From Acidobacteria bacterium OLB17 (GTDB lineage Bacteria; Acidobacteriota; Blastocatellia; Pyrinomonadales; Pyrinomonadaceae), in NCBI GenBank assembly GCA_001567505.1, contig LLEU01000059.1, forward strand, positions 35,274 through 99,273: a stretch of 64,000 nt of DNA. Reading direction: 5' to 3'. Position 1 is the first letter of the stretch, and each line of letters opens with the position of its first letter. The position numbers and the translations under genes are program-made. Shown one piece after another: positions 8,071-37,042 of this stretch. The notes beneath the pieces were generated by a model, which was given only the letters and a program-made list of their open reading frames with translations, did no database searches and was not told the origin of the DNA.

Positions 8071-9783
8071 CTATCGTGCAGAAGCAACGAAGTCCAGGTG
8101 AGACTCGGCATCATTTAACGTGATGACGCGAACCGGCGATGCGAACTCGAAACTTTTCGAGCGGATCGAGACGGTATAGGTCTCGCCGGCCGCGAGCCCA
8201 CGGAAGCTAAAATATCCGAACGGATTTGCGAGGGCGTAACGGATACGTCCATCGCTGCCGATCGCCGTCAGGAACGCGTTCGGGATAGCTCGGCCCTCGG
8301 CGGTCAAGACGCGGCCTGTGACGATCGCTTCTGCCGACGAGGGGGCGACCGGAAAGCCGATCGACCAAAGCGAGAATGTCGAAACGCCCGTTGCCGTTGC
8401 GATATTCGAGGCGGCATTGATGCAGCCTGCTCCCGTGCAGACGACAGAGGGAGCTGAATTTCCCTCCCGTTTGACGAGAGAATAATTCGCTTCGTTCGCG
8501 GGCGACGTGACGTCCGCATCGCGATAGTTGAACGACAAGTTCGCCGTAAGATCGCCATCCTCGATGACATTCCAAAAGCGGGAGACGGAGTTTGCCGCTT
8601 CCACGCCCGGGCCCGCTCCTTCGAACGCCGCGACGGTCAACCGCGAAGGATTTGCCGCAAGCGACGTGACATTCGCGGAAAAGGGCGAGTAGCCGGTAGT
8701 TGTCCCGACCGGAAATGAGAACGCGCCTGTCGCGCAGAATTCCTTCGCAAGATAGCCTTCCACAAAGCGGCCTTCGCCGGCGTTCGCGATCGTCCCGGCA
8801 CAGCCAAGCAGCAGAGTGCTTTCGTCCGTGTTGATACTGCCGGCAGAGAATGTCAGCGTCTTATCGACCGAGACGTCCCGATCGAGCGCGACGCCTACCG
8901 CATTACTGACCGTCAGCTGCTCGAACGCGATCGGGTTCGTCCCCGCGATATGCTGAGTCGAGTTGCCGTTGAAATTTACGGTGAAATTCCCCGTGCTGTC
9001 CCCGTCGTCCTGCTGGAACACGCCGTTATTCGTGAGGCTGCCGCCGACGTTCAACACCGTCGAACCACTGCTATTCGTTCCCCGAAGCGTACCAGTCCCC
9101 GATGTAAGGACATCGCCGGCGACATTGATCGTCGTCGTCCCGGACGAGCCGTTCAAAACGAATACACCGCGCGTTATATTCAAGGAGCCGAAGTTGTAGG
9201 TGGCATTCGGTCGCAAACGCAGCTCGCGACTATTCGAAAGGTAGATGGTCAAGTTGCCGTTGACGGTCAGGCTAGTGTAAACCGATCCATTACTGCCCGT
9301 ACCACTTATGACGAGATTCCCGTACGTCGGATGCGGGACATCATCGGTGATGCTGGAGTTTACTCCCTGATAGATATAAGTGCTGTTTAATGCAAGCTGT
9401 ATCGACGATGCGGTGATCGCCGGGTAGGAGCGACTCCCCGCTTGGCGCACCTCGCTCCCGTCAAGTGCGATGAGTGTTCCCGCAGAAGCTTCATTGTCGC
9501 GCATATCAAAGATTGCGCCGTCCTCGACAGTGATCGTGCCCGTGCCATTTGCATCTGCCGAAAGCGAGACCGTCGTCCCGCTCGCTATCACAACGTTGTC
9601 ATTACCCGACGGTACGACGCCGTTCTGCCAGGTCGAAGCCGTATGCCAGTTCCCTGACTGCACACTCGTGCGCGTCGCGGCCGCCGCGTTCCCGTTTTGA
9701 CTATATGATGTGATCGAATTCGTGAGGAAAAGCAGAAGAAACAAACAGGCCGCAACAAAAGCCGCACGAGGGAGAAGCTGCAT
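8071..9783 (-). CDS. Secreted repeat-rich protein with a C-terminal carboxypeptidase-regulatory-like domain
   Basis: It has a signal peptide (AACLFLLLFLTNSITSYSQ) and a G/T/N/S-rich, beta-helix-like middle region. The C-terminus VTGRVLTAEGRAIPNAFLTA...GYFSFRGLAAGETYTVSI is typical of CarboxypepD_reg. Confidence 0.6.
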   Translation of the reverse strand: MQLLPRAAFVAACLFLLLFLTNSITSYSQNGNAAAATRTSVQSGNWHTASTWQNGVVPSGNDNVVIASGTTVSLSADANGTGTITVEDGAIFDMRDNEASAGTLIALDGSEVRQAGSRSYPAITASSIQLALNSTYIYQGVNSSITDDVPHPTYGNLVISGTGSNGSVYTSLTVNGNLTIYLSNSRELRLRPNATYNFGSLNITRGVFVLNGSSGTTTINVAGDVLTSGTGTLRGTNSSGSTVLNVGGSLTNNGVFQQDDGDSTGNFTVNFNGNSTQHIAGTNPIAFEQLTVSNAVGVALDRDVSVDKTLTFSAGSINTDESTLLLGCAGTIANAGEGRFVEGYLAKEFCATGAFSFPVGTTTGYSPFSANVTSLAANPSRLTVAAFEGAGPGVEAANSVSRFWNVIEDGDLTANLSFNYRDADVTSPANEANYSLVKREGNSAPSVVCTGAGCINAASNIATATGVSTFSLWSIGFPVAPSSAEAIVTGRVLTAEGRAIPNAFLTAIGSDGRIRYALANPFGYFSFRGLAAGETYTVSIRSKSFEFASPVRVITLNDAESHLDFVASAR

Positions 9784-10728: not shown

Positions 10729-12900
10729 ATGAAAGTCCCGGACTTGGAACAGGCGAGCGAGATACTTAAACATCGCTTCGGATACGATTCTTTTCGAATG
10801 AATCAGGAGGCGGTGATCTCGTGTGTCTTGTCGGGGCGAGATTGCGTTGTGCTGATGCCGACGGGCGGCGGGAAGTCTCTCTGCTATCAGATCCCGGCAT
10901 TGATACTCGATGGATTGACAGTTGTGATCTCGCCGTTGATCGCATTGATGAAGGATCAAGTTGACGCATTACGCTCGAACGGAGTCGAAGCGGCTTTCTT
11001 GAATTCAACACAGACTGCGGCAGAGCAGGTCGAGATTTTCAGATCGATACGCAGCGGCAGCTTGAAGTTGCTGTATGTCGCCCCTGAACGGCTGCTGCAG
11101 AGCGAAGACAAGTTCATAGAATTTCTTCGCGGAATTAACGTCTCCCTATTCGCGGTGGACGAGGCACATTGCATATCGAGTTGGGGTCACGACTTTCGTC
11201 CGGAATACATTCAGCTCGGGCGGCTAAAGACGAACTTCCCTCAGATACCCGTCATCGCGTTGACGGCGACTGCGGACAAACTCGTTCGTAAAGACATCGT
11301 CGAGCGCCTTGAGATCCGTTATGCGGAAGTCTTCCGCTCCAGCTTTAATCGTCCGAACATCTTCTACGCGATCGAGCCGAAACAGAACTCCTACAACAAG
11401 CTTCTTGATTTTCTCGAAGAACGAAAAGGCGAAAGCGGCATCGTTTACTGCCTGAGTCGCGCATCGGTCGATTCGCTTGCGGATGATCTTCAAGCAGAAG
11501 GCTACGCGGCCCTGCCGTATCACGCCGGTCTTGATAAAGCGGTTCGCGATCGCCATCAGACCGCGTTCCTCAATGACGATGCAAAGATCATCGTTGCGAC
11601 GATCGCATTTGGAATGGGGATCGACAAATCAAATGTGCGCTTCGTCGTGCATATGGATCTGCCAAAGAACATCGAGAGTTATTACCAGGAAACAGGTCGT
11701 GCCGGGCGTGATGGCCTCCAGAGCAATTCGCTTCTGTTCTTCTCGTGGGGCGACGTGCAGAAACTTCGGAGCTTCGCGGCGGTCGATGGTAATCCGCAGC
11801 AGACGGAGATCATGCTGCGAAAGCTGGACCAGATGGCTACGTACGGCGACCTCAAAACTTGTCGCCGCAAGTTTTTACTCGAATACTTCAGCGAAGATTT
11901 CGCAGGACGCTGCGGACATTGCGACAACTGCACAACCAAGTTCGAATACTTCGACGGTACGGTGGTTGCGCAAAAGGCGTTGAGCGCTGTGTATCGGACA
12001 GGCCAGCGATTCGGGATGAAGTACATCATCGATTTCCTCCGCGGCTCCCAGGCAAAGTCCATCCGCGAAGAGCACAAGCAGCTAAAGACATACGGTATCG
12101 GAGGTGACATCCCGCGCGACGATTGGTTCGATCATATTAAGGAACTGATCGATCTCGGGCTTTTGAAGAAGTCAGACGGTGAGTATCCCGTATTGCAATT
12201 GACTGACGCCAGCATGGACATCCTTCGAGGAAACGGCAAGGTTGAACTGGTAAGGAGCAAGGTCACCGAAACGAAGACCGGTCTGGTCGAACGCGAATCA
12301 CCGCCGTACATTCAGGAACTTTTTGAGATCCTTCGTCGTCTCCGTGCGAATCTCGCCAAGAGCGGCAACACGCCTCCCTACGTCGTATTCGCTGATACAT
12401 CGCTGATAGAAATGGCAACGTATCTGCCGCAGAACGAAACCGAAATCAAACGTGTGTCCGGTGTTGGCGATCTCAAATTTGAGAAGTACGGACGAGCATT
12501 TCTTGTGGAAGTTCAGCGATACTGTGCGTCACATTCTCTCAATTCGCGAATACATCTGAAACGCCGAACTCGAAGCAAGAGCCCTGAGAAGCGTGGCAAG
12601 TCTAAAGTTTCTACGCATCATACATCATTCAGTATGTTCCGCAATGGAATGTCGATAAGCGACATCGCCGCCGAACGTAACCTCGGCGTATCAACCATCG
12701 AAGGCCACCTTGCACGCTTCGTCGAGTCCGGCGAGATACATCTAGACGAACTCGTACCTGTAGAGAAGATCACCGCCATCCAACAGGCCATCCAGGAATG
12801 CGACAACCCCGAAGGCTGGCTTTCCCCAATTAAAGAAATGCTCGGCGAAGACTACACCTACGGCGAGATCCGCGCCGTCCTCGCGGCGAAGAACAGCTGA
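10729..12900 (+). CDS. recQ: ATP-dependent DNA helicase RecQ (long form with a C-terminal HTH extension)
   Basis: Motifs seen: MPTGGGKSLCYQ, VDEAHCISSWGHDFRPEY, Zn cluster CRRKFLLEYF...CGHCDNC, and an HRDC-like block (PPYVVFADTSLIEMATYLP). An extra C-terminal HTH-like domain is present (ISDIAAERNLGVSTIEGHLARFV). Confidence 0.9.
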   Translation: MKVPDLEQASEILKHRFGYDSFRMNQEAVISCVLSGRDCVVLMPTGGGKSLCYQIPALILDGLTVVISPLIALMKDQVDALRSNGVEAAFLNSTQTAAEQVEIFRSIRSGSLKLLYVAPERLLQSEDKFIEFLRGINVSLFAVDEAHCISSWGHDFRPEYIQLGRLKTNFPQIPVIALTATADKLVRKDIVERLEIRYAEVFRSSFNRPNIFYAIEPKQNSYNKLLDFLEERKGESGIVYCLSRASVDSLADDLQAEGYAALPYHAGLDKAVRDRHQTAFLNDDAKIIVATIAFGMGIDKSNVRFVVHMDLPKNIESYYQETGRAGRDGLQSNSLLFFSWGDVQKLRSFAAVDGNPQQTEIMLRKLDQMATYGDLKTCRRKFLLEYFSEDFAGRCGHCDNCTTKFEYFDGTVVAQKALSAVYRTGQRFGMKYIIDFLRGSQAKSIREEHKQLKTYGIGGDIPRDDWFDHIKELIDLGLLKKSDGEYPVLQLTDASMDILRGNGKVELVRSKVTETKTGLVERESPPYIQELFEILRRLRANLAKSGNTPPYVVFADTSLIEMATYLPQNETEIKRVSGVGDLKFEKYGRAFLVEVQRYCASHSLNSRIHLKRRTRSKSPEKRGKSKVSTHHTSFSMFRNGMSISDIAAERNLGVSTIEGHLARFVESGEIHLDELVPVEKITAIQQAIQECDNPEGWLSPIKEMLGEDYTYGEIRAVLAAKNS

Positions 12901-13029
12901 TTCTGCGACAACTTTCTCCAACAAAGTATCATCTCGAAACAACGCATAGGCATGATTTCTCTTCAAGTTACCTAAGCAAAGGACCTGTGCACTAGACGAG
13001 ATTCCCTTCTACCGTTGGAACTTTCGGTC

Positions 13030-13035
13030 TATAAT
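13030..13035 (+). promoter_or_regulatory. Possible -10 element (TATAAT) for the SNF2-led operon
   Basis: A perfect TATAAT lies about 140 nt upstream of ATG 13177. Only a weak -35 (TTCTAC) is present 17 nt upstream. Confidence 0.25.
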
Positions 13036-13176
13036 TAGTGACCTTAGGACTGAATTCTGGTCCTGCTGAACCCTGATTTCTTTTCGAGGCAGATATTCTT
13101 GGTTCTCGGTCTAAAGATCTGAGTTCGAAGATCTGATGTCTAGATAATCGGTTTCACCAGTTGGTATCGAGACTGC

Positions 13177-16100
13177 ATGCAAGTTATCGACAATCTTAGT
13201 CACTTTTTCGGGGACAACCTTCGCCAATCTCTTGCTGAGGGCTCACGGTTGCGGATCGCAGCCGCGACCTTCTCGATCTACGCATTTGAGGCGCTCCGAA
13301 CTGAGCTGGAGGCGGTTGAGGGTTTCGACTTCATTTTTACGTCTCCGACGTTTGTTCCACAACAGGCGACAGACGGCTTCCGCAAAGAGAGACGAGAGTA
13401 TGTGATTCCGCGCGTCGAGCGCGAACGCGGTATATACGGAACTGAGTTCGAGATTCAGCTGAAGAACAAACTCACCCAGCGCGCGATCGCGAAGGAATGT
13501 GCCGAGTGGATCGCCAAGAAGGCGACGTTCCGATCGAATAAAACTAAGGCCCCGATGCAACAATTCGCTTGCATCGAAGATGGATCTGAAAATGTCGCAT
13601 ACATGCCTTTACAGGGCTTCACAGCGGTCGATCTTGGATACCAAAAGGGCGATGCGGTATCAAACTTTATTACCAAGTTCGACGAGCCGGCAATGACCAA
13701 GACGTACTTGGATCTCTTCGAGCAGATATGGGCCGATCCATCGAAACTCGAAGATGTCACGCAGCGAATCTGCGACCACATTGCGTCGGTTTATAAGGAG
13801 AACTCATCTGAACGGATCTACTTCCTAATGCTCTTTAACATCTTCAATGAGTTCCTCGAGGACATCAACGACGATGTATTGCCAAACGACCTCACGGGCT
13901 ACAAGAACAGCCTCGTTTGGAAAAAACTATACAATTTCCAGCGCGATGCAGTAACGGGCATCATCAATAAGTTGGAAACACACAACGGCTGCATTCTCGC
14001 GGATAGCGTCGGTCTTGGTAAGACCTTCTCCGCGCTCGCAGTTATTAAATACTATGAGCTTCGCAACCGGGCGGTACTTGTGCTCTGCCCGAAAAAGCTC
14101 GCAGAAAACTGGACGAACTATAATCGAAACCTAACGACGAACATTTTCGCAAAGGACAGGTTCAACTACGACGTACTTTGCCATACAGACCTGCAGCGGA
14201 CACGCGGCGAATCTTTGGGTATCCCACTCAACAAAGTCAATTGGAGCAACTACGATCTTGTCGTCATTGACGAATCGCACAACTTCAGAAATAACGATCA
14301 GTTTCACGAGCGCGAAACCCGGTATCAGAAGCTGATGAACACCGTCATCAAGCAAGGTGTAAAGACCAAGGTTTTGATGCTGTCTGCGACACCGGTGAAT
14401 AATCGCTTCGCCGACCTGCGAAACCAACTCGCACTTGCGTACGAGGGCGACTCGGAGAACCTTAGCCGCAACCTGAAAACTGAAAGGAGCGTCGAGGAAA
14501 TATTCCGCAGGGCTCAGCTTGCATTCAACGAATGGTCAAAACTCCCGCCTGAAGAAAGAACCCCGGAAGCGATCATGAGGTCGCTCGATTTTGATTTCTT
14601 CGAACTGCTCGACAGCGTCACGATCGCCCGCTCGCGAAAACACATTGAGAAGTATTACGACACAACCGACATCGGAACCTTTCCCGAACGTCGAAAGCCT
14701 ATCTCGAACCACTGTCCCTTGACCCAACGCTCGGACGTGATCGGCTTTAACGATATTTTTGCGCAGCTTACCCTGCTAAAACTCGCGGTCTACGCTCCGG
14801 TCAGTTACATCCTCGACAGCCGAGTTGCTACGTACGAGGAGATGTATGATACGGAGGTTCATGAGGGCAAGGGCAAGTTCAAGCAGGTTGACCGCGAAAC
14901 AAGCCTCCAGCGGTTGATGACCATCAACCTCCTAAAGCGACTTGAAAGTTCGGTGGAGGCGTTTCGGATCACCCTCCGAAAGCTGCGGGACAAGAATCTT
15001 CGAACGCTCGGCCAGATAGAGGCTTTTCAGCAAACGGGCATCGATGCAGACATTGCAGATGTATCGAGCGCGGTCGAGTCGATCGAACCGGACGAAGATG
15101 ATTTCTCCGATCCGGAAGACATGCAGCTTGGCGGAAAGATCCAGATCAAACTCTCCGATCTGGACTTGCCGCGATTCGAACACGATCTCAAAGCCGACCT
15201 TGAAAAGATCAATTACTTGCTAGAAGAGATGGAGAAGGTCTCGCCGGTGGATGATACAAAACTCCAGCATTTGAGAGTTCTGCTTGAAAGTAAGGTCACA
15301 TCGCCGATCAACCCTGGTAATAAGAAGGTTCTGATCTTCACCGCGTTCGCCGATACGGCGGATTACCTCTACGAACACATCTCGGGCTCGATGCTCGAGA
15401 AGTACGGACTCCACACGGCGAAAGTGACAGGGAAAGACTCGCCCAAATCGACGCTCAATAAGCATTATGATTTCCAGTCGATCTTGACGCTGTTCTCGCC
15501 AAGGTCGAAGGATAAAGATCTGCTGATGCCGGAGGAATCGCGAACGATCGAATTCCTGATAGGGACAGACTGCATTTCGGAAGGTCAGAATCTCCAGGAC
15601 TGCGACTACCTTGTCAACTACGACATCCATTGGAACCCAGTTCGCATAATTCAGCGGTTCGGACGCATCGACCGCATCGGCTCAACCAATGAATCGATCC
15701 AGCTAGTAAACTACTGGCCCGATATCTCGCTCGACGAATACATCAACCTCAAAGACCGCGTCGAGAGCCGAATGGTGATTGCCGACGTGACCGCTACCGG
15801 TGACGACAATCCCTTGAGCGCAAAGGCCAACGATCTTTCATACCGCAAAGAGCAGCTTCGACGGCTGCAGGACGAGGTTATCGACATGGAGGATCTCAAG
15901 ACCGGTGTTGCGATCACCGACCTTGGCTTGAACGATTTCCGAATGGATCTCGTCAACTATATGAAAGGCCGCGATGATGTCGCTACGCTCCCGAGCGGTC
16001 TTCATGCAGTTGTCGCTCCGCGGCCTGAGATCGGGCTTGTCCCCGGTGCGATCTTTGCGCTTCGGAACCGAAATGAAGGCGTGTCGATCACGCAGCACAA

Positions 16101-16449
16101 TCGGCTTCATCCTTACTATCTTGTTTATGTGGATAGTGGCGGCAAGGTTGTGATCGATCATACGCAGGTCAAGAAGCTGCTCGACCTTATTCGCACTGCT
16201 TGCGCGGGCCGAAGCGTCGCGGATGCCGAACCTTGTCGGCTCTTCAATGAGGCAACGAATGACGGCCGTGATATGGAGGTCTATTCGGAACTGCTGAATC
16301 GAGCCATACAGTCTATAATTGAGGTTAAGGACGAGAGCGATCTCGACAGCCTTTTCCGCGTTGGAAAGACGACCGCGTTGGTGGGCGATATTTCGGGCCT
16401 TAATGATTTTGAGCTGATCGCGTTCATTGTTGTTCAGGAAATGATGTAG
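13177..16449 (+). CDS. SNF2-family helicase/translocase with an approximately 240-aa non-helicase (PLD-like, HKD-less) N-terminal domain
   Basis: The protein is 1090 aa. Walker A is ADSVGLGKT (14011-14025), motif II is DESH (14269-14280), then SAT (MLSATPVNN), and motif VI is QRFGRIDRIGS (about 15650-15685). N-terminus: MQVIDNLSHFFGDNLRQSLAEGSRLRIAAATFSIYAF... Confidence 0.85.
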   Translation: MQVIDNLSHFFGDNLRQSLAEGSRLRIAAATFSIYAFEALRTELEAVEGFDFIFTSPTFVPQQATDGFRKERREYVIPRVERERGIYGTEFEIQLKNKLTQRAIAKECAEWIAKKATFRSNKTKAPMQQFACIEDGSENVAYMPLQGFTAVDLGYQKGDAVSNFITKFDEPAMTKTYLDLFEQIWADPSKLEDVTQRICDHIASVYKENSSERIYFLMLFNIFNEFLEDINDDVLPNDLTGYKNSLVWKKLYNFQRDAVTGIINKLETHNGCILADSVGLGKTFSALAVIKYYELRNRAVLVLCPKKLAENWTNYNRNLTTNIFAKDRFNYDVLCHTDLQRTRGESLGIPLNKVNWSNYDLVVIDESHNFRNNDQFHERETRYQKLMNTVIKQGVKTKVLMLSATPVNNRFADLRNQLALAYEGDSENLSRNLKTERSVEEIFRRAQLAFNEWSKLPPEERTPEAIMRSLDFDFFELLDSVTIARSRKHIEKYYDTTDIGTFPERRKPISNHCPLTQRSDVIGFNDIFAQLTLLKLAVYAPVSYILDSRVATYEEMYDTEVHEGKGKFKQVDRETSLQRLMTINLLKRLESSVEAFRITLRKLRDKNLRTLGQIEAFQQTGIDADIADVSSAVESIEPDEDDFSDPEDMQLGGKIQIKLSDLDLPRFEHDLKADLEKINYLLEEMEKVSPVDDTKLQHLRVLLESKVTSPINPGNKKVLIFTAFADTADYLYEHISGSMLEKYGLHTAKVTGKDSPKSTLNKHYDFQSILTLFSPRSKDKDLLMPEESRTIEFLIGTDCISEGQNLQDCDYLVNYDIHWNPVRIIQRFGRIDRIGSTNESIQLVNYWPDISLDEYINLKDRVESRMVIADVTATGDDNPLSAKANDLSYRKEQLRRLQDEVIDMEDLKTGVAITDLGLNDFRMDLVNYMKGRDDVATLPSGLHAVVAPRPEIGLVPGAIFALRNRNEGVSITQHNRLHPYYLVYVDSGGKVVIDHTQVKKLLDLIRTACAGRSVADAEPCRLFNEATNDGRDMEVYSELLNRAIQSIIEVKDESDLDSLFRVGKTTALVGDISGLNDFELIAFIVVQEMM

Positions 16450-16455
16450 GAGAAA

Positions 16456-17121
16456 GTGGTGCTGTTTTCTTATCCCCCACATGCCCGCGTCGGCAAGAAT
16501 CTACCAAAGAGCAAGATCTACCAACACGCGCGAGTTTCAGCATCTCTTCGGCGCAAGATCATCGACCAGATCGCCCGTATAACCTGGGCATACAAGCTCT
16601 CGCCGGAGACGGTAAATCTTCCCGGTTCGCCGACAGTACCTGAGGTCGAGATATTCGTGGTCGAACTGAAAGGTAATGAGCTCGCGGCGGATGTTGTCCG
16701 CTCGATCGACAACGCGATACCGTTTCTGGCCGTTTACGAAGTGGTTTCCGGAAACCGGACGCGGGTCGTTGCGGCGTACAAGCGGCCGAGCGAAGCGGAT
16801 TCGTCAAAATGGGTGACCGAGACATATTTCGAAACTGACTGGTTTCCAAATTCCGCCGAAAGGATCCCGCTGTTCTCGTCAATAGATCTCGGAAAGCTTT
16901 ACGAACAGATGCTGACGGCCATGATGCCGATCGGACGGCGGCGTGACGAGGCGTTTCCTGTAACGGTTGCGAGGGCCGGTGAGATCCGCCGGCTTGAGCG
17001 CGAGGCCGAGAAGCTAAACGCAAAACTTCGTAAAGAAAAACAGTTCAACCGACAGGTTGAGATCAATGCCAAACTCCGCGATATTAAAGGCCAGATCGAA
17101 GCGTTGAGTGCCAATAAATAG
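16456..17121 (+). CDS. DUF4391-like protein of unknown function
   Basis: The protein is 221 aa, with a GTG start 6 nt after the SNF2 stop. The blocks KSKIYQHARVSASLRRKIIDQIARITWAYKLSPETVNL and IDNAIPFLAVYEV match my recollection of DUF4391. The C-terminus is a K/E/R-rich coiled coil. Confidence 0.65.
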   Translation: MVLFSYPPHARVGKNLPKSKIYQHARVSASLRRKIIDQIARITWAYKLSPETVNLPGSPTVPEVEIFVVELKGNELAADVVRSIDNAIPFLAVYEVVSGNRTRVVAAYKRPSEADSSKWVTETYFETDWFPNSAERIPLFSSIDLGKLYEQMLTAMMPIGRRRDEAFPVTVARAGEIRRLEREAEKLNAKLRKEKQFNRQVEINAKLRDIKGQIEALSANK

Positions 17122-17150
17122 TCTTATTAGTGTAAATGTCGTGTTAATTC

Positions 17151-19157
17151 GTGGCTAAAACTCTTATGGAAAAACTGAAGATGCATACTCCCGACTTTAC
17201 GAACGAGAATATTGCTCGTATTGCCGAGCTGTTCCCGAATTGCGTGACGGAATCGCGGGATGAAAAGGGCGAGGTAAAGCGGGCGATCGATTTCGATCAG
17301 CTCAGGCAGGAATTGTCGGGCAGCATCGTCGAAGGGCCGCAGGAGCGGTATCAGTTAAACTGGCCGGGCAAGCGTGAGGCTTTGCTCACGGCGAACGCAC
17401 CGATCGCCAAGACCCTGCGTCCGTGCCGCGAGGAATCGGTCGATTTCGACACGACCAAAAACCTCTTTATCGAAGGCGACAACCTCGACGCCCTCAAACT
17501 GCTCCAGGAAACCTACCTCGGCAAGGTCAAGATGATCTACATCGACCCGCCGTACAACACGGGGAACGACATTCTTTATAAGAATGACTACTCGTCCGCT
17601 CAGAGGGAATACGAGGTTGACGCAGGATTGAGAACCGATGACGGACTTCGTGCCGTGACGAATACTGAATCGAACGGTCGGTATCACAGCGATTGGCTGT
17701 CAATGATGTATGCCCGAATCCGGCTCGCAAGGAACTTTCTTAAAGAAGACGGAATATTTGTCATCACGATCGACCATTATGAGATTTACAATCTCGGAGA
17801 GGTTTGCGACGAGGTCTTTGGTTACGAGAACCGCCTCGGATTGGTGACGGTATACATAAATCCGAAAGGGCGAAACCAAGAGAAGTTCTTTTCCCCCTGC
17901 ACGGAATACATGCTCGTCTACGCCAGAGACATCAAATCAGCCTACTTCCGTGAGGTCGTTATTGATGACGAAAAGGCGGAAGAATTTATTTATGAGGATG
18001 AAAAGGGAAAGTTCCGCTACGACGGGTTCATGCGGGCTCGCACCAGTGCGAGTCGTGAGGCTAAGCCATCAATGTGGTACCCGCTTTACGTAAGCGAGGA
18101 CTTAAAGACTATCACCACGAAGAAGACGGCCAACTTTCACGAGGTCTACCCTGAAACGCCGAACGGACAGTTCAGCTGGAAGACAACTCCCGAGACCTTC
18201 GACGACCGAAATCAAAACGAATATTTCAAGGCCGAGTTAGTCAATGGGTCAGTGTTTATCTTCAATAAATATTACGAGAATCAGATTTTCAAGAATATCT
18301 GGACCGACAAGAAATACTTCCCGGAGTTTAATGGCACTCAGGTCATCAAGAAACTGTTCGACGGCAAGAGCTATTTTGATTTCCCAAAGTCCATCTACGC
18401 CGTGAAGGACATCGTAAAAATCATTACTGAAAATGACGACCTAGTCATGGATTTCTTCGCGGGTTCGGGAACGACAGCCCACTCTGTAATGGAGCTTAAC
18501 TCTGAAGATGGTGGAAGACGAAATTATGTTTTAGTACAGATTCCTGCCGCTGTTGATGCTAAGAGTGAGGCGGGGAAGGACGGTTATTCCGAGATTTCCG
18601 CGGTAACTATGGAACGTATTAGACGCGCAGGGAAAACGATCAAAGACGAAGCCGGGCTGAACGGCGTCAATCTCGACATCGGCTTTCGCGTGCTGAAGAT
18701 CGATTCGTCCAATATGAAGGACGTTTACTACTCGCCCGACGAACAGGCACAGGCAAATCTGCTCGACCAGGTCACCAACATCAAAGAAGACCGCACCGCC
18801 GAGGATCTCCTCTTCCAGGTCCTCCTCGACTGGGGCGTGGATCTTTCTCTTCCTATCGTCCGCGAAAGAATTTCTACTACAGAGAACACTGAGAGCACAG
18901 AGGCATCAAATAAAAGCTCCGTGAACTCTGTGTCCTCTGTGGTGAATAAAGGGTTTGAGGTCTTCTTTGTCGATGAGAACGCCCTCGCCGCCTGCTTTGA
19001 CGACGGCGTCTCAGAAGACCTCATCAAGGAACTCGCCAAACGCCAACCGCTCCGCGTCGTCTTCCGCGACTCCGGCTTCGCCTCCGACGACGCCAAGATC
19101 AACGCCGAACAGATATTCAACCAAATGTCACCCGGAACGGAGGTGCGGAGTATTTAG
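17151..19157 (+). CDS. mod: Site-specific DNA methyltransferase, beta-class N6-adenine/N4-cytosine (type III Mod-like)
   Basis: The protein is 668 aa. Motif IV DPPYNTG (17544-17555) precedes motif I FFAGSGTT (18453-18476). The N-terminal region ERYQLNWPGKREAL is typical of Mod-like enzymes. Confidence 0.85.
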   Translation: MAKTLMEKLKMHTPDFTNENIARIAELFPNCVTESRDEKGEVKRAIDFDQLRQELSGSIVEGPQERYQLNWPGKREALLTANAPIAKTLRPCREESVDFDTTKNLFIEGDNLDALKLLQETYLGKVKMIYIDPPYNTGNDILYKNDYSSAQREYEVDAGLRTDDGLRAVTNTESNGRYHSDWLSMMYARIRLARNFLKEDGIFVITIDHYEIYNLGEVCDEVFGYENRLGLVTVYINPKGRNQEKFFSPCTEYMLVYARDIKSAYFREVVIDDEKAEEFIYEDEKGKFRYDGFMRARTSASREAKPSMWYPLYVSEDLKTITTKKTANFHEVYPETPNGQFSWKTTPETFDDRNQNEYFKAELVNGSVFIFNKYYENQIFKNIWTDKKYFPEFNGTQVIKKLFDGKSYFDFPKSIYAVKDIVKIITENDDLVMDFFAGSGTTAHSVMELNSEDGGRRNYVLVQIPAAVDAKSEAGKDGYSEISAVTMERIRRAGKTIKDEAGLNGVNLDIGFRVLKIDSSNMKDVYYSPDEQAQANLLDQVTNIKEDRTAEDLLFQVLLDWGVDLSLPIVRERISTTENTESTEASNKSSVNSVSSVVNKGFEVFFVDENALAACFDDGVSEDLIKELAKRQPLRVVFRDSGFASDDAKINAEQIFNQMSPGTEVRSI

Positions 19158-19226
19158 CGAGGGGAAGACTCCCCGAAAAGTATTTCGGCGAGTTGTGGTA
19201 AATATAAGAAACTAAAGGCCCATCAC

Positions 19227-19862
19227 ATGAGCAAAGACCTGACAAATTCGGCAATAGATCGCCAGAATGTCCTTAATAATCCTTACGCCCTGCAAGAAAT
19301 AGAAAAGGCCGCTGGAATAAAGGCGATCCCCTTTGAAGGCAAGACTGTCGTGCTCAAAGAACAAATAGCGGCATTCTTTGAAGTAACTCCACGCACCATT
19401 GACAACTATATTGAGAAAAATGGAGATGAATTACGGAAAAACGGCTATGAGGTGCTTCGCGGGAAACGCTTGAAAGACTTGAAGTTAGCAGTAACTGATG
19501 TTTTTGGTAACGAAACAGATTTCATTACCAAAACAACTGTGCTTGGAATATTCGATTTCAAGGCTTTTTTGAACCTCGCAATGTTAATGTCCGAGAGCGA
19601 GCGTGCAGCCCTGCTTAGACAGGCCATTCTGGACATCGTGATCGATACGATCAATGCAAAGACAGGCGGAAAGACCAAATATATCAACCAACGCGACGAG
19701 CAATTTATTCACTCTGCCTTCGCGGAGGAGAATTATCGCCGAAAGTTTACCGATGCCCTACGGGACTGTGTGGACATGGGGAATTTCAAATATGCACTCT
19801 ACACAGAGGATTTCGACAATGAGGAATTGAAACTCAAGTACCTCCAGGCGATCGTTGTCTAG
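19227..19862 (+). CDS. RhuM/ORF6N-like putative DNA-binding protein embedded between mod and res
   Basis: The protein is 211 aa. The pattern IPFEGKTVVLKEQIAAFFEVTPRTIDNYIEKNGDEL...GYEVLRGKRLKDLK resembles ORF6N/RhuM N-terminal HTH regions. It ends 3 nt before the res ATG. Confidence 0.4.
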   Translation: MSKDLTNSAIDRQNVLNNPYALQEIEKAAGIKAIPFEGKTVVLKEQIAAFFEVTPRTIDNYIEKNGDELRKNGYEVLRGKRLKDLKLAVTDVFGNETDFITKTTVLGIFDFKAFLNLAMLMSESERAALLRQAILDIVIDTINAKTGGKTKYINQRDEQFIHSAFAEENYRRKFTDALRDCVDMGNFKYALYTEDFDNEELKLKYLQAIVV

Positions 19863-19865
19863 TTT

Positions 19866-22800
19866 ATGAAGCTCAAATTCAAGATCCAAGAATACCAAAC
19901 CGACGCCGTCAATGCGGTCGTGGACTGCTTTGCGGGCCAACCAAAAACCGAAGGCGTAAGGTATCGCGTCGATCCCGGCCGTTCGATGGAAGCACACACT
20001 CTTCTTGCCGCACTGCCCGAGGAAGAGATAGCCGGTTTTGCAAACGAGGACCTTCGCATAAGTCCGTATCGTGTCCTCCAGAATGTGCAGGAGATTCAAC
20101 GCCGACAGAATCTTCCTGTTTCGACCAATCTCGTTAATGACACTAAAACCGGATGTGCCTTCAACCTCGACATCGAGATGGAAACCGGCACCGGGAAGAC
20201 GTATTGCTACATCAAGACGATGTTCGAGCTAAACCGTCAGTACGGCTGGAGCAAATTCATTGTCGTCGTGCCAAGCATCGCGATCCGCGAAGGTGTGCAC
20301 AAATCCTTCGAGGTGATGAAAGAGCACTTCCTCGAAGAGTACGGCAAGCAAGCCCGGTTCTTTATCTACAATTCAAAACAACTTCACAACCTCGAAAGTT
20401 TCTCGTCTGACGCCGGGATCAATGTGATGATAATCAACGTACAGGCGTTCAACGCAACCGGCAAGGACGCCCGTCGGATATACGAAGAACTCGACGATTT
20501 CCAATCACGAAGGCCGATAGATGTCATCAAAGCAAACCGACCGATCCTTATCCTTGACGAACCGCAGAAAATGAGCGGTGACGCGACAATGAAGTCGCTG
20601 AAGGAGTTCAAGGCCCTGGCGATGCTGCGTTACTCCGCCACGCACAATCAGACCTACAACAAGATATATCGTCTCGATGCACTCGATGCGTACAATCAGA
20701 AGCTTGTAAAGAAGATCGCCGTACGCGGTATCTCAGTCAAAGGCCTACGGGGCACGAAGGCGTATTTGTACCTCGCCGGGATCGATATCTCCGCAAGCAA
20801 GCCTCCGGTCGCGAGGCTAGAGTTTGAGGTCAAACAGAAAAGCGGCAACATAAAAACGCCAAACGGCAAAGGTTGCCAAGGGCTATGACCTTCATCAGCA
20901 TTCGGGCCTTGATCAATACGATGGATTTGTTGTTTCCGAGATTGACGCCCGGACCAACACCGTGTCGTTCACAAACGGTAAGGAAGTCTCGGTTGGCGAG
21001 ATCGCGAATGACCAAAGCGAAGCATCGCTCAGGCGCATACAGATCCGCGAAGCGATCCGAGCTCATTTTGAGAAGGAGCAAGCACTGTTCCCGCAAGGCA
21101 TCAAGGTCCTTTCGCTCTTCTTCATCGACACCGTCGCGAAATACCGCCTTTACGATGAGAATGGCGAGGTTGGCGGCGAGTATGCGAAGGTGTTCGAAGA
21201 GGAATACGCCGCGATCAGCGCCGAGTTTCGAACGCTGCTCGACGACCGATATACCAAATACATTGATGAGATACCGCCCGGCAAGACGCACAACGGTTAT
21301 TTCTCGATCGACAAGAAAAGCAAGCGAATGGTCGACCCCACGGTCGCTGGACGCGGCGAGACAAAAGGCGAGACAGACGACGTTGACGCCTACGATCTCA
21401 TCCTCAAGGACAAAGAACGTCTCCTTTCGTTCGAAGAACCGACCAGGTTTATCTTTTCTCACTCAGCGCTTCGCGAAGGCTGGGACAACCCTAACGTATT
21501 CGTCATCGGAACCTTAAAGCACAGCGACAATACGATCTCGCGACGACAAGAGGTCGGGCGGGGAATGCGCCTCGCGGTAAACCAGAATGGCGAACGCATC
21601 GATGATCCCACGATCGTCCACGATGTGAATGTCTTGACAGTGGTCGCCAGCGAAAGCTATCACGATTTCGTCGAAGGCCTACAGAGGGACATCCGCGAAT
21701 CGCTTTCCGAGAGACCAAAGGTTGCCGACAAAGCCTACTTCAAGAACAAGATTCTCCGCACCGCAGCTGGCGATGTTGTAATGACCGATGCGATGGCCGG
21801 CCACCTCGAGTTCTACCTGATCCAGAACGGGTACGTGGATGTTGATCGAAAGATCACGGAGGAATATCACCATGCGAGGGAGTCCGATACCCTCGCCGAG
21901 CTCCCCTCACAACTTGCGGAATACAAGGAGCAAGTTATCAAGCTGGTCGACAGCGTATTCTCAGAGTCACAGATGCCGTCGATCGAGAACGATCTCACAT
22001 TAAAGGTGAATCCGCTCAACGCGAACTTTGAGAAAAAGGAGTTCAAGGAGCTTTGGAGCCGGATAAACAGGAAAGCGGCTTACACGGTCGATTTTGATTC
22101 GGCCGAGCTTGTGGATAAGGCGGTCAAATGCCTTGACCGTGAACTTCGGGTCATGCAGCTTCAGTATGTAGTACAACGCGGGCAGCAAGGGAATTCGACT
22201 ACGATCGAAGACCTCCGATCGGGCGACGGTTTTGAGCTCCAGGAAACCGCCATACTGTCCGAGAAGGTCTCCGTTCATTCCGATGTTAAATACGATCTAA
22301 TCGGCAAGGTTACGACCGGTACGCAGTTGACGAGGAAAACTGTAGCGGCCATCCTCACCGGCATCAATAACGCGACATTTAGCCAGTTCAGAGTAAATCC
22401 GGAGGACTTTATTTCGGGCGCGATCAAGCTTATTAACGAGCAGAAAGCGACCGTGATCGTAGAACACCTGGCTTACAACCCTTTGAACGATGAGCATGGC
22501 GTGGAGATATTTACGCAGGACAAGGCCAAGCACGATCTCAGTAGGGCGGGCGATCCGCTGAAACGACATGTTTACGATTACGTCTTCACCGACTCAACGG
22601 TCGAACGCGAATTCGTTAAAGAACTCGACACTAGCGAGGAGGTGGTCGTTTACGCGAAACTGCCTAAAGGGTTCTCGATCCCAACACCGGTCGGCAACTA
22701 CAACCCTGATTGGGCGATCTCATTCAAGGAAGGGGCCGTAAAGCACATTTATTTCGTTGCTGAGACCAAAGGCTCGCTATCATCTATGCAACTCCGCGAG

Positions 22801-22914
22801 ATCGAAAGATCGAAGATCGAATGCGCGAGAAAGTTTTTTGCGAAGATCACCTCCGACCAGGTCAAGTACGATGTGATCGATAACTATAGCCAGCTGATGC
22901 AGGTGGTGAAATAG
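19866..22914 (+). CDS. res: Type III restriction enzyme Res-like helicase-nuclease, split as sequenced by a +1 frameshift at A5 run 20852-20856
   Basis: ORFs 19866-20888 and 20962-22914 are two halves of one protein. Motif I is ETGTGKT (20187-20201) and motif II is DEPQ (20556-20567). The C-terminal PD...ExK is NPDWAI...VAETKG (22705-22770). The reading continues ...GNIK|[17 protein letters not shown]... if one A is removed. Confidence 0.85.
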
Positions 22915-23242: not shown

Positions 23243-23268
23243 ACAAAAACGGGCACCGATCGGTGCCC
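23243..23268 (-). terminator. Rho-independent terminator downstream of tRNA-Asn
   Basis: A perfect palindrome gggcaccgatcggtgccc (23251-23268) is followed on the minus strand by gtttttgt. Confidence 0.6.
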
Positions 23269-23283
23269 GCCTTTGCTTAGAAT

Positions 23284-23358
<75 letters not shown>

Positions 23359-28552: not shown

Positions 28553-28707
28553 CTCGTCCAATGGGGCCAGGCCCTCTGTAACCACCAAAAGACGGGCAAA
28601 GAGCGCGGCTTGTTTCCTTGACCCTTAAATTAGGCGCGTGTTAGTCTTAAACCTTTTGAGTACACGGCGCTTTTCTGCTGTTTGCAGGCCGTGGGAAACA
28701 CGCTTAT

Positions 28708-29148
28708 ATGCACCTGATCGCCGCTATCCAACTTTTTCCCGACGGGACGATGTTCGTACATATCGCGCTCATCCTCGTCATGATCTGGATACTCAATAAA
28801 ACCCTGTTCAAGCCAATAAATGAAGTGCTTTCGGCCCGCGAAAAGGCCAAAAGCCACGAAGGCGGCGAGGCCGGGGCGATCCTCGAGGATGTCGCTAGAA
28901 AAGAAGCGGCTTATTCGAGCGAGATCCGCGATGCTCGGAATGAGGGTTATCAGATCATCGAGGAGCGGCACAATGCGGCCGTTGCTCAGAGGAATGAGAA
29001 GCTCGGGAAGGTCAAGGAAGAGGTCGCTGCGACTCTAGACAGCGGCCGGGCCGACATCGAGCGGCAGGCGGCCGACGCCCGCCGCGAACTACAGGCAGGT
29101 GTCGAGAAGATGGCCGATCACATTACGGCAACTATTTTGAAAGGTTAG
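28708..29148 (+). CDS. atpF: F0F1 ATP synthase subunit b' (b-like)
   Basis: The protein is 146 aa, with one N-terminal TM (MFVHIALILVMIWILNKTLFKPINEVL) followed by a long charged helix. It is the first gene of the atp block. Confidence 0.7.
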   Translation: MHLIAAIQLFPDGTMFVHIALILVMIWILNKTLFKPINEVLSAREKAKSHEGGEAGAILEDVARKEAAYSSEIRDARNEGYQIIEERHNAAVAQRNEKLGKVKEEVAATLDSGRADIERQAADARRELQAGVEKMADHITATILKG

Positions 29149-29154
29149 TGGAAT

Positions 29155-29724
29155 ATGATCATCGCCGTAGTTAACAGCCTTTTACTTTCAGCCGCATCGA
29201 GCGGTGCGCAGAGCGGATTTTCGAAGTTCTATAACGAATGGATGAATATTCCGGGCTTCGAGGCTTGGAAATTCGTCAACCTTGCGATCTTTGTCGTGGC
29301 TATGTATTTCGTGCTTCGAAAGCCGCTGGGCAATGCCTTCAAGCAGAAGCGCGAAGTGATCCGCGAAGAGCTTATTCGGGCTGAGAACGCAAAACAGGCC
29401 GCCCTTGAGCGCCTGACCGAGATCGAAGGAAAACTTGCACAAAAAGACACGGAAAAGGCCGATATTCTCGCAAGGGCAAAGGCCGAGGCCGAAGCGGATG
29501 AAAAGGAACTCTCGGAAATGACCGCATCCGACACCGCACGCCTAAAAGCGCAGGCAGAGGCCGAGCTCGATCGCCTTGCCAATCAGTCAAAAAGTGCCCT
29601 TCGCCGATTTTCTGCCGAGGAGAGCGTTCGTCTTGCCGAAGAGCGTCTTCGCAGCCAGATCGACGGTGCCGTCGATGCTCGCCTTATCAAGACCGGCATT
29701 GCCGAGATCGGAGGTTTGAACTAA
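29155..29724 (+). CDS. atpF: F0F1 ATP synthase subunit b
   Basis: The protein is 189 aa, with an N-terminal TM (FVNLAIFVVAMYFVLRKPLGNAF) and an A/E/K-rich coiled helix. Confidence 0.7.
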   Translation: MIIAVVNSLLLSAASSGAQSGFSKFYNEWMNIPGFEAWKFVNLAIFVVAMYFVLRKPLGNAFKQKREVIREELIRAENAKQAALERLTEIEGKLAQKDTEKADILARAKAEAEADEKELSEMTASDTARLKAQAEAELDRLANQSKSALRRFSAEESVRLAEERLRSQIDGAVDARLIKTGIAEIGGLN

Positions 29725-30266
29725 TGAGCACCGAAACGATCGCACGGCGGTACGCCATCGCCCTGGCCGACGTTGTTACGAAGAACGGCGAGGCCGCCGG
29801 CGTAAAGGGCGAACTTAACGCTTGGAATGAGATGGTCGCATCGAGCCCTGACCTTCAGTCCGTTTTCGCAAACCCATCTATTCAGCATTCAGCAAAGGAA
29901 AAGTTGCTCGAAACGCTCATCGCAAAGGCCGGGCCATCAAAGACAACGGCGAATTTTCTTCGCGTTCTTGTGAAGAATGACCGCATCGGCGATCTGCCGC
30001 AGATACAGGAACGCTTCGAAGAGGAGCTGGCCGAGCGAAGCGGCGTGGTCGTGGCCTCGGTAGTTTCGGCCCGCGACCTGCCGGAGAGCGAGAAAGGCGT
30101 TTTCCAGGCAAATCTCGAAAAGCTTACCGGCCGAAAGGTCGAGATCGAGTACGGCGTCGATCCCGAGATCATCGGCGGCGTCGTAACACGCATCGGATCG
30201 ACCGTATATGATTCGTCCGTGCGGACAAAACTCGACAATCTTCGCGAGGAGTTGGCAGCGGCGTAA
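29724..30266 (+). CDS. atpH: F0F1 ATP synthase subunit delta (OSCP)
   Basis: The protein is 180 aa, with ARRYAIALADV at the N-terminus and GGVVTRIGSTVYDSSVRTKL at the C-terminus. Its position between b and alpha fits. Confidence 0.85.
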   Translation: MSTETIARRYAIALADVVTKNGEAAGVKGELNAWNEMVASSPDLQSVFANPSIQHSAKEKLLETLIAKAGPSKTTANFLRVLVKNDRIGDLPQIQERFEEELAERSGVVVASVVSARDLPESEKGVFQANLEKLTGRKVEIEYGVDPEIIGGVVTRIGSTVYDSSVRTKLDNLREELAAA

Positions 30267-30347
30267 ACGAACGGGACAGTTTATCTTTAGGATCATTTAG
30301 AACTCGAATTTTTAATTGCCGGCTCGACCGGCGACAGCGAAAAAACA

Positions 30348-31895
30348 ATGGAAAGCATTAAAGCTAACGAGATCAACGAGATCATTCGTGCACAGATCGA
30401 GAATTTTGACGCGTCAATGACGGTCGCCGAGGTCGGCACGGTCATTAAGGTCGGCGACGGTATCGCCGAGATCTACGGCCTTGAAAAGGTCATGGCCGGA
30501 GAGCTTCTCGAATTCCCGCACGCGGTCCGCGGCCTTGCTCTGAACCTTGAAGAAGACAAGGTCGGATGCGTTCTCTTCGGCGATTTTCAGAAGATCAAAG
30601 AGGGCGACGAAGCAAAACGCACGCGCCGGATCATGAGCGTGCCCGTTGGCGACGCACTCATCGGCCGCGTTGTCGATGCCCTCGGAAACCCGATCGACGG
30701 CAAAGGCGAGATCGTGACCGATACTTACTACCCGGTCGAGCGGATCGCTCCGGGTATCATCGATCGCCAGCCCGTGAAGGAACCGCTCCAGACCGGTATC
30801 AAGGCGATCGACTCGATGGTGCCGATCGGCCGCGGACAGCGTGAGTTGATCATCGGCGACCGCCAGACCGGAAAGACCGCAGTCGCGATCGACACGATCA
30901 TCAACCAGAAAGGCAAGGACGTCATCTGCGTTTATGTCGCGATCGGACAGAAGGCCTCGACCGTTGCACAGGTCCGACAGAAGCTTGAAGAGTACGGTGC
31001 GATGGATTACACGATCATCGTGAACGCCTCGGCCTCGGATCCGGCAGCGATGCAGTTCCTTGCTCCGTATTCCGGATGCGCAATGGGCGAATATTTCCGC
31101 GACAACGGACGTCATGCGTTGACCGTTTACGACGATCTTTCCAAGCAGGCGGCCGCTTACCGCGAGATCTCGCTCCTTCTCCGCCGCCCGCCGGGCCGCG
31201 AAGCTTATCCGGGCGACGTTTTCTATCTACACTCACGCCTTCTCGAACGTGCGGCTAAGATGTCGGATGCACGCGGCGGCGGAAGCCTGACGAGCCTTCC
31301 GATCATCGAAACACAGGCAGGCGACATTTCGGCCTACATTCCGACGAACGTGATCTCGATCACGGACGGACAGATATTCCTTGAGTCCGACCTCTTTAAC
31401 TCGGGCGTTCGCCCCGCGATCAACGTCGGAAACTCGGTCTCCCGCGTTGGTGGTTCGGCACAGATCAAGGCGATGAAATCCGTTGCTGGTACGCTTCGTA
31501 TCGACCTTGCACAGTTCCGCGAGCTCGTCGCATTCGCGCAGTTCGGTTCGGATCTTGATAAATCGACGCAGGCACAGCTCGAACGTGGCCGCCGCCTTAC
31601 CGAGATCCTAAAGCAGGGACAGTACGTTCCGATGGCCGTCGAGGATCAGGTCCTGATCATTTGGACGGTCACAAAGGGACGCGCCGACGATATCGCGGTA
31701 GAGGACCTCAGACGGTTTGAGAGCGAGCTTCTATCATTCATCAAGGCATCGCATCCGGCCGCTCTTTCATCGCTCCGCGACAAGAAGAAACTCGACGACG
31801 AGATCGAGGCCGCACTTGCCGAGGCCGTTGAGGATTTCAAGGCAAAACGCTGGAATAGCGGCTCGTCCGAGACATCGGCTGCCGCCGGAAAGTAG
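30348..31895 (+). CDS. atpA: F0F1 ATP synthase subunit alpha
   Basis: The protein is 515 aa, with Walker A GDRQTGKT and the blocks [27 protein letters not shown] and ITDGQIFL. Confidence 0.95.
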
Positions 31896-31970
31896 GCAAG
31901 TTTTCGCCGGTCTCCGACTCGGAGAATGCCGCGGTTCCCGAAGGTGTAATATGTTGCTGGGGGGTTGGCT

Positions 31971-32625: not shown

Positions 32626-32628
32626 TTT

Positions 32629-33504: not shown

Positions 33505-33529
33505 GGCACGCAGCTCTGCAGATCTAAAG

Positions 33530-37035: not shown

Positions 37036-37042
37036 TAGAGCA

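Follow-up and report, generated by a model that had tools for sequence, protein, structure and literature searches.

A cassette of four conserved genes, encoding a SNF2-family ATPase, a DUF4391 protein, a type III methyltransferase (Mod) and a type III restriction endonuclease (Res), was analyzed in a 64,000-nucleotide (nt) stretch of DNA from Acidobacteria bacterium OLB17 (GCA_001567505.1, contig LLEU01000059.1, positions 35,274 to 99,273), hereafter referred to as the window. Judged by sequence comparison, the cassette is a widespread, conserved and uncharacterised four-gene elaboration of type III restriction-modification (R-M). The locus is probably a type III-derived R-M system, whose four conserved components are passed on together and presumably function as a single unit. 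In the window, the SNF2 gene occupies positions 13177–16449 (1090 amino acids [aa]; recognised by Pfam, PADLOC and NCBIfam profiles and by its motifs), the DUF4391 gene 16456–17121 (221 aa; PF14335), the gene for Mod, a beta-class N6-adenine methyltransferase, 17151–19157 (668 aa), and the Res gene 19866–22914, where it is read as two open reading frames (ORFs; 19866–20888, 340 aa, and 20962–22914, 650 aa). A RhuM-like ORF (19227–19862, 211 aa) stands between Mod and Res. All ORFs are on the forward strand, and the spacers between them are 6, 29, 69 and 3 nt. The ORF coordinates, spacers and motifs were found at the positions given by an earlier account made from the letters alone (the sequence-only reading), and the profile hidden Markov model searches that it had proposed confirmed the SNF2, DUF4391, type III Mod and type III Res families. 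Its five-gene operon was reduced to a core of four genes, as the RhuM-like ORF has relatives in only 2 of 80 genome loci and is truncated in the window.

To delimit the cassette, DUF4391 was used as the probe against one genome per species. At least 555 confirmed loci were obtained, and the best 80, the closest relatives of the window locus, were examined; with 26 loci on IMG/VR contigs and the plasmid loci, about 115 loci were examined overall. The SNF2, DUF4391, Mod and Res genes had the same order and strand in all 80 genome loci wherever the contig reached, in hosts belonging to Acidobacteriota, alpha-, beta- and gamma-proteobacteria, Planctomycetota, Myxococcota, Chlorobi, Bdellovibrionales and Collinsella. 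Each of the 26 IMG/VR loci was arranged identically. Plasmids of E. coli, Acinetobacter sp. NEB149, Shewanella baltica, Vibrio vulnificus and the archaeon Methanomethylovorans hollandica carried the same four genes at 47% to 21% DUF4391 identity, and the cassette was also present on Listeria and Bacillus cereus plasmids; across loci, DUF4391 identity to the window ranged from 84% down to about 21%. The PGAP labels read 'helicase-related protein / DUF4391 / site-specific DNA-methyltransferase / DEAD/DEAH box helicase'. Among complete loci, Res is missing only from L061, a decayed remnant in which a truncated Mod stub precedes opposite-strand genes. No Res was listed for a Desulforapulum plasmid, the PLSDB gene table being one that omits pseudogenes, and on a Listeria innocua plasmid the DUF4391 position is taken by a 185-aa 'hypothetical protein', which is a divergent DUF4391 (25–30% identical to others). 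Full-length SNF2 homologues were found on 108 plasmid records, many of them from Listeria, Enterococcus, Bacillus and Lactococcus, and the cassette was found in 10 of 5426 complete E. coli genomes, where it is mostly plasmid-borne. The survey of DUF4391 homologues that the sequence-only reading had called for thus gave a conserved linkage, order and strand, with co-varying proteins, and the SNF2-DUF4391 pair is not the chance neighbour of Mod and Res that it had allowed for.

Just upstream of the SNF2 gene, a gene of 65–78 aa was observed in a divergent clade of loci (Desulforapulum, Shewanella, Methanomethylovorans and Vibrio), at L083 5530–5727, L084 5337–5573, L085 5191–5427 and L089 2362–2598. 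It is annotated as a helix-turn-helix (HTH) protein or a transcription factor in two of these four loci, and may be a C-protein-like controller. No equivalent small ORF was present in the 276-nt region upstream of the cassette in the window (12901–13176, forward strand), which is the presumed promoter region and is not conserved with relatives.

Pairwise-distance correlations were calculated for the 52 loci in which all four genes were intact, with 500 permutations. Mean pairwise identity was 0.77 for SNF2, 0.71 for Res, 0.58 for DUF4391 and 0.55 for Mod. The distances correlated at 0.87 for SNF2 and DUF4391, at 0.77 for both SNF2 and Res and DUF4391 and Res, and at about 0.46 for any pair with Mod; the observed values were reached by 0 of 500 permutations. 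The low identity and correlations of Mod are attributed to exchange of its target-recognition region. Between the window and L001, its closest relative, the ends of the mod gene were 88.6% identical and positions 17590–18611 were without DNA homology, which indicates a swapped target-recognition region and hence a predicted difference in methylation specificity. DNA homology to relatives extended from the SNF2 start codon (13177) to the Res stop codon (22914), and the flanks were dissimilar. The correlations demonstrate co-inheritance, without proving physical interaction.

Both spacers around mod were below 60 nt in about a quarter of the 80 genome loci (compact loci), and the others held inserts of 0.15–6.4 kb at the DUF4391|Mod junction, the Mod|Res junction or both; cargo inserts were confined to these two junctions. 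The SNF2-DUF4391 spacer was 3–51 nt in 76 of the 80 loci. These hot spots held genes of known or candidate defence function, which included a SIR2 and HerA pair, SoFic, a DUF1016/YhcG nuclease (PDC-S02), a Bro-N protein (PDC-S13), a Schlafen/AlbA_2 protein, a 900-aa UvrD-like ATPase, DUF2779 (Cas4-like) and DUF2130. Cargo sites were located at L010 10686–14218, L016 12730–13845, L020 15938–17026, L013 12681–13550, L001 10654–12066 and 14119–15780, L046 10666–13368, and L009 12724–14133.

The RhuM-like ORF of the window belongs with this cargo. The RhuM/ORF6N-like label of the sequence-only reading found only weak backing in Pfam, where the ORF6N match was below the cut-off (E 0.0095). The ORF matched the PADLOC candidate PDC-M59A strongly (2.6e-58). 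The latter match spans positions 2–189 of the 338 in the PDC-M59A profile. Full-length relatives (338–358 aa), each with a 143-aa downstream gene, were found only in L004 and L007 among the 80 loci; the window ORF aligns to these proteins over residues 1–193 and then breaks off, and the 143-aa partner is absent. The truncation is real, because the same truncated ORF occurs in three other assemblies of the same sequence. The ORF is best read as a 3'-truncated, decayed accessory or cargo gene outside the conserved core.

Mod and Res are, by profile comparison, clear homologues of EcoP15I. Mod matched N6_N4_Mtase (PF01555), PADLOC MTase_III (3e-201) and EcoP15I Mod (4zcf_A, 4.2e-54), and has DPPY (motif IV, 17544–17555) ahead of FAGSGTT (motif I, 18456–18476), with a central target-recognition region. 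Res matched Pfam ResIII and RE_endonuc (PF19778), PADLOC REase_III on both halves and, with the intact L001 orthologue as the query, EcoP15I Res (4zcf_C, 1.6e-72). It is a superfamily 2 (SF2) ATPase (GTGKT 20187–20201, DEPQ 20556–20567) with a C-terminal PD-(D/E)xK endonuclease (22705–22770; PD 22705–22710, ETK 22762–22770). The cassette shares with the type III enzymes EcoP15I and EcoP1I (PDB 4ZCF) the beta-class Mod motif order and central target-recognition region, the SF2 motifs and C-terminal PD-(D/E)xK of Res, and a mod gene upstream of res on the same strand. It differs from them in having a PLD-fold SNF2 ATPase (PLD, phospholipase D) and DUF4391 ahead of mod, internal cargo hot spots, and a C-terminal half of Res from another subfamily (RE_endonuc PF19778); EcoP1/P15-type Res aligned to the cassette Res only over approximately residues 48–612 (tblastn). 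The two-gene definition of type III R-M does not describe these loci, as SNF2 and DUF4391 are upstream in every DUF4391 locus examined. In Lactococcus cremoris plasmid pJM2E, a Mod-Res pair (L086 4279–9217) was observed directly after an IS6 element, without SNF2 or DUF4391; this natural derivative with Mod and Res alone belongs to the same clade, and its Res is 45% identical to the L001 orthologue.

The SNF2 protein matched SNF2-rel_dom and Helicase_C in Pfam, and its best PADLOC match was C3a139 'HKD+Snf2' (4.6e-132, full length). Its matches to RapA were weak, and that to HmaA was partial (3.9e-27). The ATPase motifs, GLGKT (Walker A, 14011–14025), DESH (14269–14280) and QRFGRIDRIG (motif VI, 15652–15681), were invariant across the aligned homologues. 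The extra N-terminal domain of about 240 aa reported by the sequence-only reading (approximately aa 1–240, nt 13177–13900) was confirmed: homology to relatives starts exactly at 13177, and the domain is kept family-wide, down to 26–30% identity. The protein ends in an uncharacterised C-terminal region of about 220 aa. The N-terminal domain of the window protein was modelled with AlphaFold2 (AF2) at moderate confidence (pLDDT 74.8, pTM 0.71), and the top 24 Foldseek matches of the model in the PDB all belonged to the PLD superfamily, with SauUSI as the best (7CLG, E 1.9e-4) and phosphatidylserine synthase (PssA), the NgoAVII R protein, polyphosphate kinase (PPK1) and Tdp1 among the further ones. 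The sequence profile of the domain gave no match in the PDB, and a divergent SNF2 homologue (P0395) matched Pfam PLDc_2 at 29.6 bits (gathering cut-off 27). It is through the fold search and this transitive Pfam match only that the domain is placed, as modelled, in the PLD fold. At the HxK(x)4D(x)6GSxN positions of the alignment, the window clade has F-A-C...PLQG instead, with H and K replaced, and the divergent clade retains only H and GS, with K, D and N replaced. Because the HKD residues are replaced, the domain is predicted from the alignment to be catalytically inactive, and the sequence-only reading had likewise seen no catalytic HKD motif.

The DUF4391 protein matched its family profile (PF14335) at 1.7e-55; it has no PADLOC model and gave no NCBIfam match. 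Its AF2 model was of very high confidence (pLDDT 96.9, pTM 0.90) and consists of an alpha/beta domain (residues 1–140) followed by a long helical hairpin (145–218), at the turn of which lies the most conserved motif of the family, EKQFNRKVE.N. No significant neighbour of the model was found by Foldseek in the PDB or BFVD (best E 0.058 and 0.09, respectively), and nothing was found among solved structures by sequence profile. An assignment to PD-(D/E)xK nucleases through the conserved E63, D85 and K109 was tried and rejected, being unsupported by the topology or the fold search. The family comprises 2861 clusters at 50% identity in the profile search. The protein probably partners SNF2 or serves as its adaptor. 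Its faster evolution relative to SNF2, its tight coupling to that protein and the conservation of its hairpin tip fit an adaptor or a sensor. Among its variants, a 729-aa protein (P0301) has the N-terminal half (lobe) of SNF2 joined directly to DUF4391, and is probably an internal-deletion fusion; a second putative DUF4391 fusion (P0265) had no second domain on inspection. The DUF4391 genes of Shewanella (L084) and Vibrio (L089) encode 290 and 327 aa, 70–100 aa above the usual 220 aa.

In type III R-M, an asymmetric site is hemimethylated, and cutting requires ATP and a pair of unmodified sites in inverse orientation. In the four-component system proposed here, Mod would, by homology, mark host DNA and supply sequence recognition, and Res would cleave unmodified DNA. 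SNF2 and DUF4391 would provide a second module, of motor plus adaptor, that works on the unmodified DNA on which Mod-Res also acts. Having lost its nuclease, SNF2 would depend on Res for cutting, with a layout as in SauUSI or the HKD-SNF2 effectors of type 2 BREX-related (BR) systems (PMC12839542). The role preferred for it is that of an auxiliary translocase or remodeller, which would deliver or activate Res on invader DNA, or clear obstacles or inhibitors, and DUF4391 would bridge SNF2 to Mod-Res through its conserved helical-hairpin tip. A four-part machine is favoured because SNF2 has the layout of a restriction enzyme without a nuclease of its own and the operon supplies Res. The role of the SNF2-DUF4391 module is put forward as a hypothesis.

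Several points weigh against this proposal. Contact of SNF2 or DUF4391 with Mod or Res is presumed. Canonical type III systems are self-sufficient with Mod and Res. Mod and Res of the same clade are alone on Lactococcus cremoris pJM2E, and full-length Res matches were obtained from 149 plasmid records versus 108 with full-length SNF2 matches, although the 149 include canonical type III enzymes at about 28% identity. A shared history of transfer, and not physical interaction, may account for part of the distance correlations, and the tighter correlation of SNF2 with DUF4391 (0.87) than with Res (0.77) also fits a two-module arrangement. The DUF4391 fold offers no functional clue. Finally, the DUF4391|Mod junction can take up other defence genes, so the two halves need not be translationally coupled.

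In the main rival explanation, a self-sufficient type III pair would share its operon with an independent SNF2-DUF4391 defence or maintenance module, the two systems standing side by side. Mod and Res as complete EcoP15I-type enzymes, their solitary occurrence on pJM2E, a cargo hot spot exactly between DUF4391 and Mod, and a co-variation that is tightest for SNF2 and DUF4391 all agree with it. A precedent is found in lactococcal AbiR (AbiRc), which has a restriction-endonuclease-like N-terminal and an SNF2-like C-terminal domain, depends for its activity on the methylase of an adjacent R-M system and is toxic without it (PMC13064643). By analogy, SNF2-DUF4391 might use the methylation mark for self-protection, as AbiR relies on the neighbouring methylase. 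AbiR differs from the cassette in its sigma-70-like and ParB-like partners and its type II methylase, and was likened to it by description only. Against two independent systems, SNF2-DUF4391 without Mod (and without Res where the contig allows) occurred in 0 of about 115 loci, bar the decayed L061; order and strand were constant from bacteria to archaea; both SNF2 and DUF4391 co-vary with Res (r = 0.77); and with a PLD-fold domain that lacks the catalytic residues, no effector is apparent within the pair itself. We consider this arrangement rather unlikely.

A third way to account for the two upstream genes is as a control or establishment module, which would limit self-restriction in a host that is still unmethylated, or recycle Res-Mod complexes that have stalled on the chromosome. 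RapA recycles RNA polymerase, and the weak RapA matches of SNF2 point in this direction. The spread of the cassette across phyla at 65–93% SNF2 identity, which implies frequent transfer, the position of SNF2 and DUF4391 as the genes transcribed first, and a module without predicted nuclease activity of its own would also suit such a role. On the other side, other R-M systems use small C proteins for establishment, and a small HTH gene lies upstream in the divergent clade; a 1090-aa motor maintained by strong purifying selection seems expensive for regulation alone. This explanation was judged quite unlikely, and the four-part system was retained as the preferred one.

The operon had been called DISARM-analogous by the sequence-only reading, and could be viewed as a DISARM variant: SNF2 would stand in for DrmD, the methyltransferase for DrmMI and the PLD-like domain for DrmC, with Res in place of DrmA/DrmB. 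Class 1 DISARM (DrmA, DrmB, DrmC, DrmD and DrmMI) indeed likewise brings together an SNF2 ATPase, a PLD-fold element and an adenine methyltransferase within a single operon, and the SNF2 of the cassette gives partial DrmD matches. In the Bacillus cereus plasmid pMRY14-0105_1 (NZ_AP022916.1), drmA and DUF1998 (drmB) lie 33 nt upstream of SNF2-DUF4391-Mod-Res. This six-gene array (L090 10633–24366, record positions 28632–42365), the downstream genes of which overlap, unites the core helicase pair of DISARM with the cassette in a hybrid; SNF2 or Res homologues were listed in at least eight B. cereus plasmids. The differences outweigh this loose analogy. The PLD-fold domain of the cassette is fused to SNF2 and predicted inactive, and no DrmC-type HKD PLD nuclease was found in the cassette, where the sole PLD-fold element is that domain with its HKD residues replaced. 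The match of SNF2 to NCBIfam DISARM_DrmD reached 152 bits against a cut-off of 610. Class 1 DISARM has a BrxHII/RapA-like SNF2 and a PglX-like methyltransferase (PMC12458937), whereas the methyltransferase of the cassette is a beta-class type III Mod (PF01555), neither DrmMI (PglX-like) nor DrmMII (a C5 methyltransferase). No above-cut-off PADLOC, Pfam or NCBIfam match to DrmA/DUF1998 was obtained on the nine ORFs scanned; the only DrmA matches in the window were weak and partial, on a RecQ helicase and SNF2, and tblastn with B. cereus DrmA/DrmB against the whole window and all loci returned only the B. cereus plasmid itself. Apart from that plasmid, DrmA and DrmB are thus missing from the window and from every locus covered (more than 100), which implies that the cassette needs no YprA/DUF1998 helicase. 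A DISARM variant is accordingly very improbable.

Comparisons with further systems gave partial likenesses. No PADLOC match to BREX PglZ, BrxC or PglX was found among the ORFs from 8 to 23 kb, and SNF2 and RecQ matched BrxHI/BrxHII helicases weakly; the absence of DUF1998, DrmA-like, PglZ and BrxC genes stated by the sequence-only reading was borne out, as none was above the cut-off in the profile scans. BREX-related (BR) type 2 systems and Hma (PMC12839542, PMC11232893) share with the cassette an SNF2 helicase with an N-terminal HKD/PLD domain, an adenine methyltransferase and defence genes inserted inside the operon. The HKD domain of BR type 2 is predicted to be active and is taken as the effector (PMC12839542), whereas the cassette has lost the HKD residues and has a separate Res nuclease. 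BR and Hma have a DUF499 ATPase and a DUF1156 methyltransferase, and BR is without DUF4391 or type III Mod/Res; no DUF499, DUF1156 (Pfam) or DUF3780 was found in the cassette. Hma, BR and ARMADA were rejected as names for it, since the papers describe other gene sets. SauUSI (type IV, PDB 7CLG) has the same layout of a PLD-fold domain, an SF2 motor and a C-terminal domain, and differs in that its HKD nuclease is active, it works by itself and modified DNA is its target; in the cassette, the motor is of the SNF2 type and the nuclease residues are missing.

No description of the cassette was found in the literature covered, which holds few subscription journals. The mentions of DUF4391 that came up were discarded, one being a typo for DUF7941 and another an entry in a Pfam enrichment table. 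A 2025 lactococcal survey describes a type III system as one R and one M (PMC12418389). PADLOC and NCBIfam are without DUF4391, and the view that existing tools do not treat the cassette as a named system stood.

The Res gene is split in the window by an apparent frameshift, placed exactly at 20852–20856 by the sequence-only reading, as alignment to L001 and L002 showed. At this site the window reads CATAAAAACGCC where both relatives read CAT-CAAACGCC; that is, an A5 homopolymer with one extra A stands for the A4 of the relatives. The identical 211-aa ORF led to three further assemblies of this sequence (GCA_026931425.1, Logan SRR15900771 and Logan ERR15459716), and these carry A4 as well. Res is intact (1015 aa) in L001, L123 and L124, and L125 ends at a contig edge inside the gene. 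Over 10.6 kb, the window and GCA_026931425.1 differed by 0 substitutions and exactly three +1 homopolymer indels (20852, 24390 and 24566), and a homopolymer-length sequencing error is deduced from this pattern. No record of the 340-aa frameshifted N-terminal product was found in public assemblies, which agrees with a frameshift peculiar to the assembly of the window. The other two indels (24390, T5 for T4; 24566, T4 for T3) fall in the region of the GMP synthase gene (guaA), and account for the truncated or split appearance of this gene in the window.

The frameshift is most likely a sequencing or assembly artefact, and needs no biological explanation, since the three other assemblies carry A4. 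The source assembly holds systematic homopolymer errors, and other apparent frameshifts in it are to be distrusted. A dead remnant, in which Res is a pseudogene and only Mod (as an orphan methylase), and perhaps SNF2, is functional, would be compatible with the two Res frames in the window and the truncated cargo gene next to them. The A4 of the other assemblies, with Res intact at 1015 aa where the contig spans the gene, and the lack of any difference from GCA_026931425.1 other than the three homopolymer indels leave this explanation hardly credible, and the four-gene system is probably intact in the organism.

The cassette is located in a lower-GC stretch (0.48–0.53 over approximately 9–24 kb versus 0.55–0.61 in the flanks; about 0.50 for the cassette and 0.57 for the flanks) and is flanked by a tRNA-Asn gene (23284–23358, reverse strand), so that the low-GC setting adjoining a tRNA held for the locus. 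No integrase, att-like repeats or direct repeats were found near tRNA-Asn. Among 55 related loci, 12 had a tRNA within 10 kb, and in several it directly abutted the cassette: tRNA genes for Thr, Met and Glu were found in unrelated genomes at L001 19441–19516, L016 6422–6498, L017 17353–17428, L039 17048–17124 and L076 6314–6389. This suggests repeated insertion beside tRNA genes, though no integrase was seen in the window. A scan of the window for promoters and terminators gave no gain over shuffled sequence. A possible terminator, a G+C-rich hairpin with an 8-bp stem (7 GC pairs), was observed after the Res stop codon and before tRNA-Asn, at 23250–23269, though the T run after it is weak.

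Directly upstream of the cassette, inside the lower-GC stretch (GC about 0.52), lies a RecQ helicase gene (10729–12900) whose product has a C-terminal HTH_40 domain. It matched TIGR01389 above the cut-off (769 bits) and scored very highly on the PADLOC DpdF and PsyrT models, which is probably generic RecQ similarity. Since L001 has no RecQ upstream of its cassette, this gene is not part of the mobile unit. The left edge of the lower-GC stretch encodes a 570-aa protein (8071–9783, reverse strand) that has G8 and CarboxypepD_reg domains and is unrelated to the cassette.

DUF4391 occurs in at least 555 species genomes and on about 100 plasmids (among them some of Listeria, Enterococcus, Bacillus cereus, Lactococcus and E. 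coli). Annotation names Mod and Res only, and censuses consequently count cassette loci as ordinary type III R-M; many of the loci counted as plain type III are probably four-part machines. The hot spots inside the operon are a practical place to mine for new defence genes. A bolder claim is possible rather than probable: SNF2 and DUF4391 would be obligate subunits of a two-motor, four-component ATP-dependent restriction class of Bacteria and Archaea, with DUF4391 as an adaptor of unseen fold and with cleavage rules or inhibitor resistance unlike those of type III, and many loci would need reclassifying. If this is true, site-orientation dependence might, for example, be relaxed, or the system might resist anti-restriction proteins. 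If the extra genes matter, the cassette would represent a new restriction-enzyme architecture, provide the first function for a protein family without a recognisable fold, and add another case to the unexplained SNF2-methyltransferase neighbours seen in BREX, DISARM, ARMADA, Dpd and Hma.

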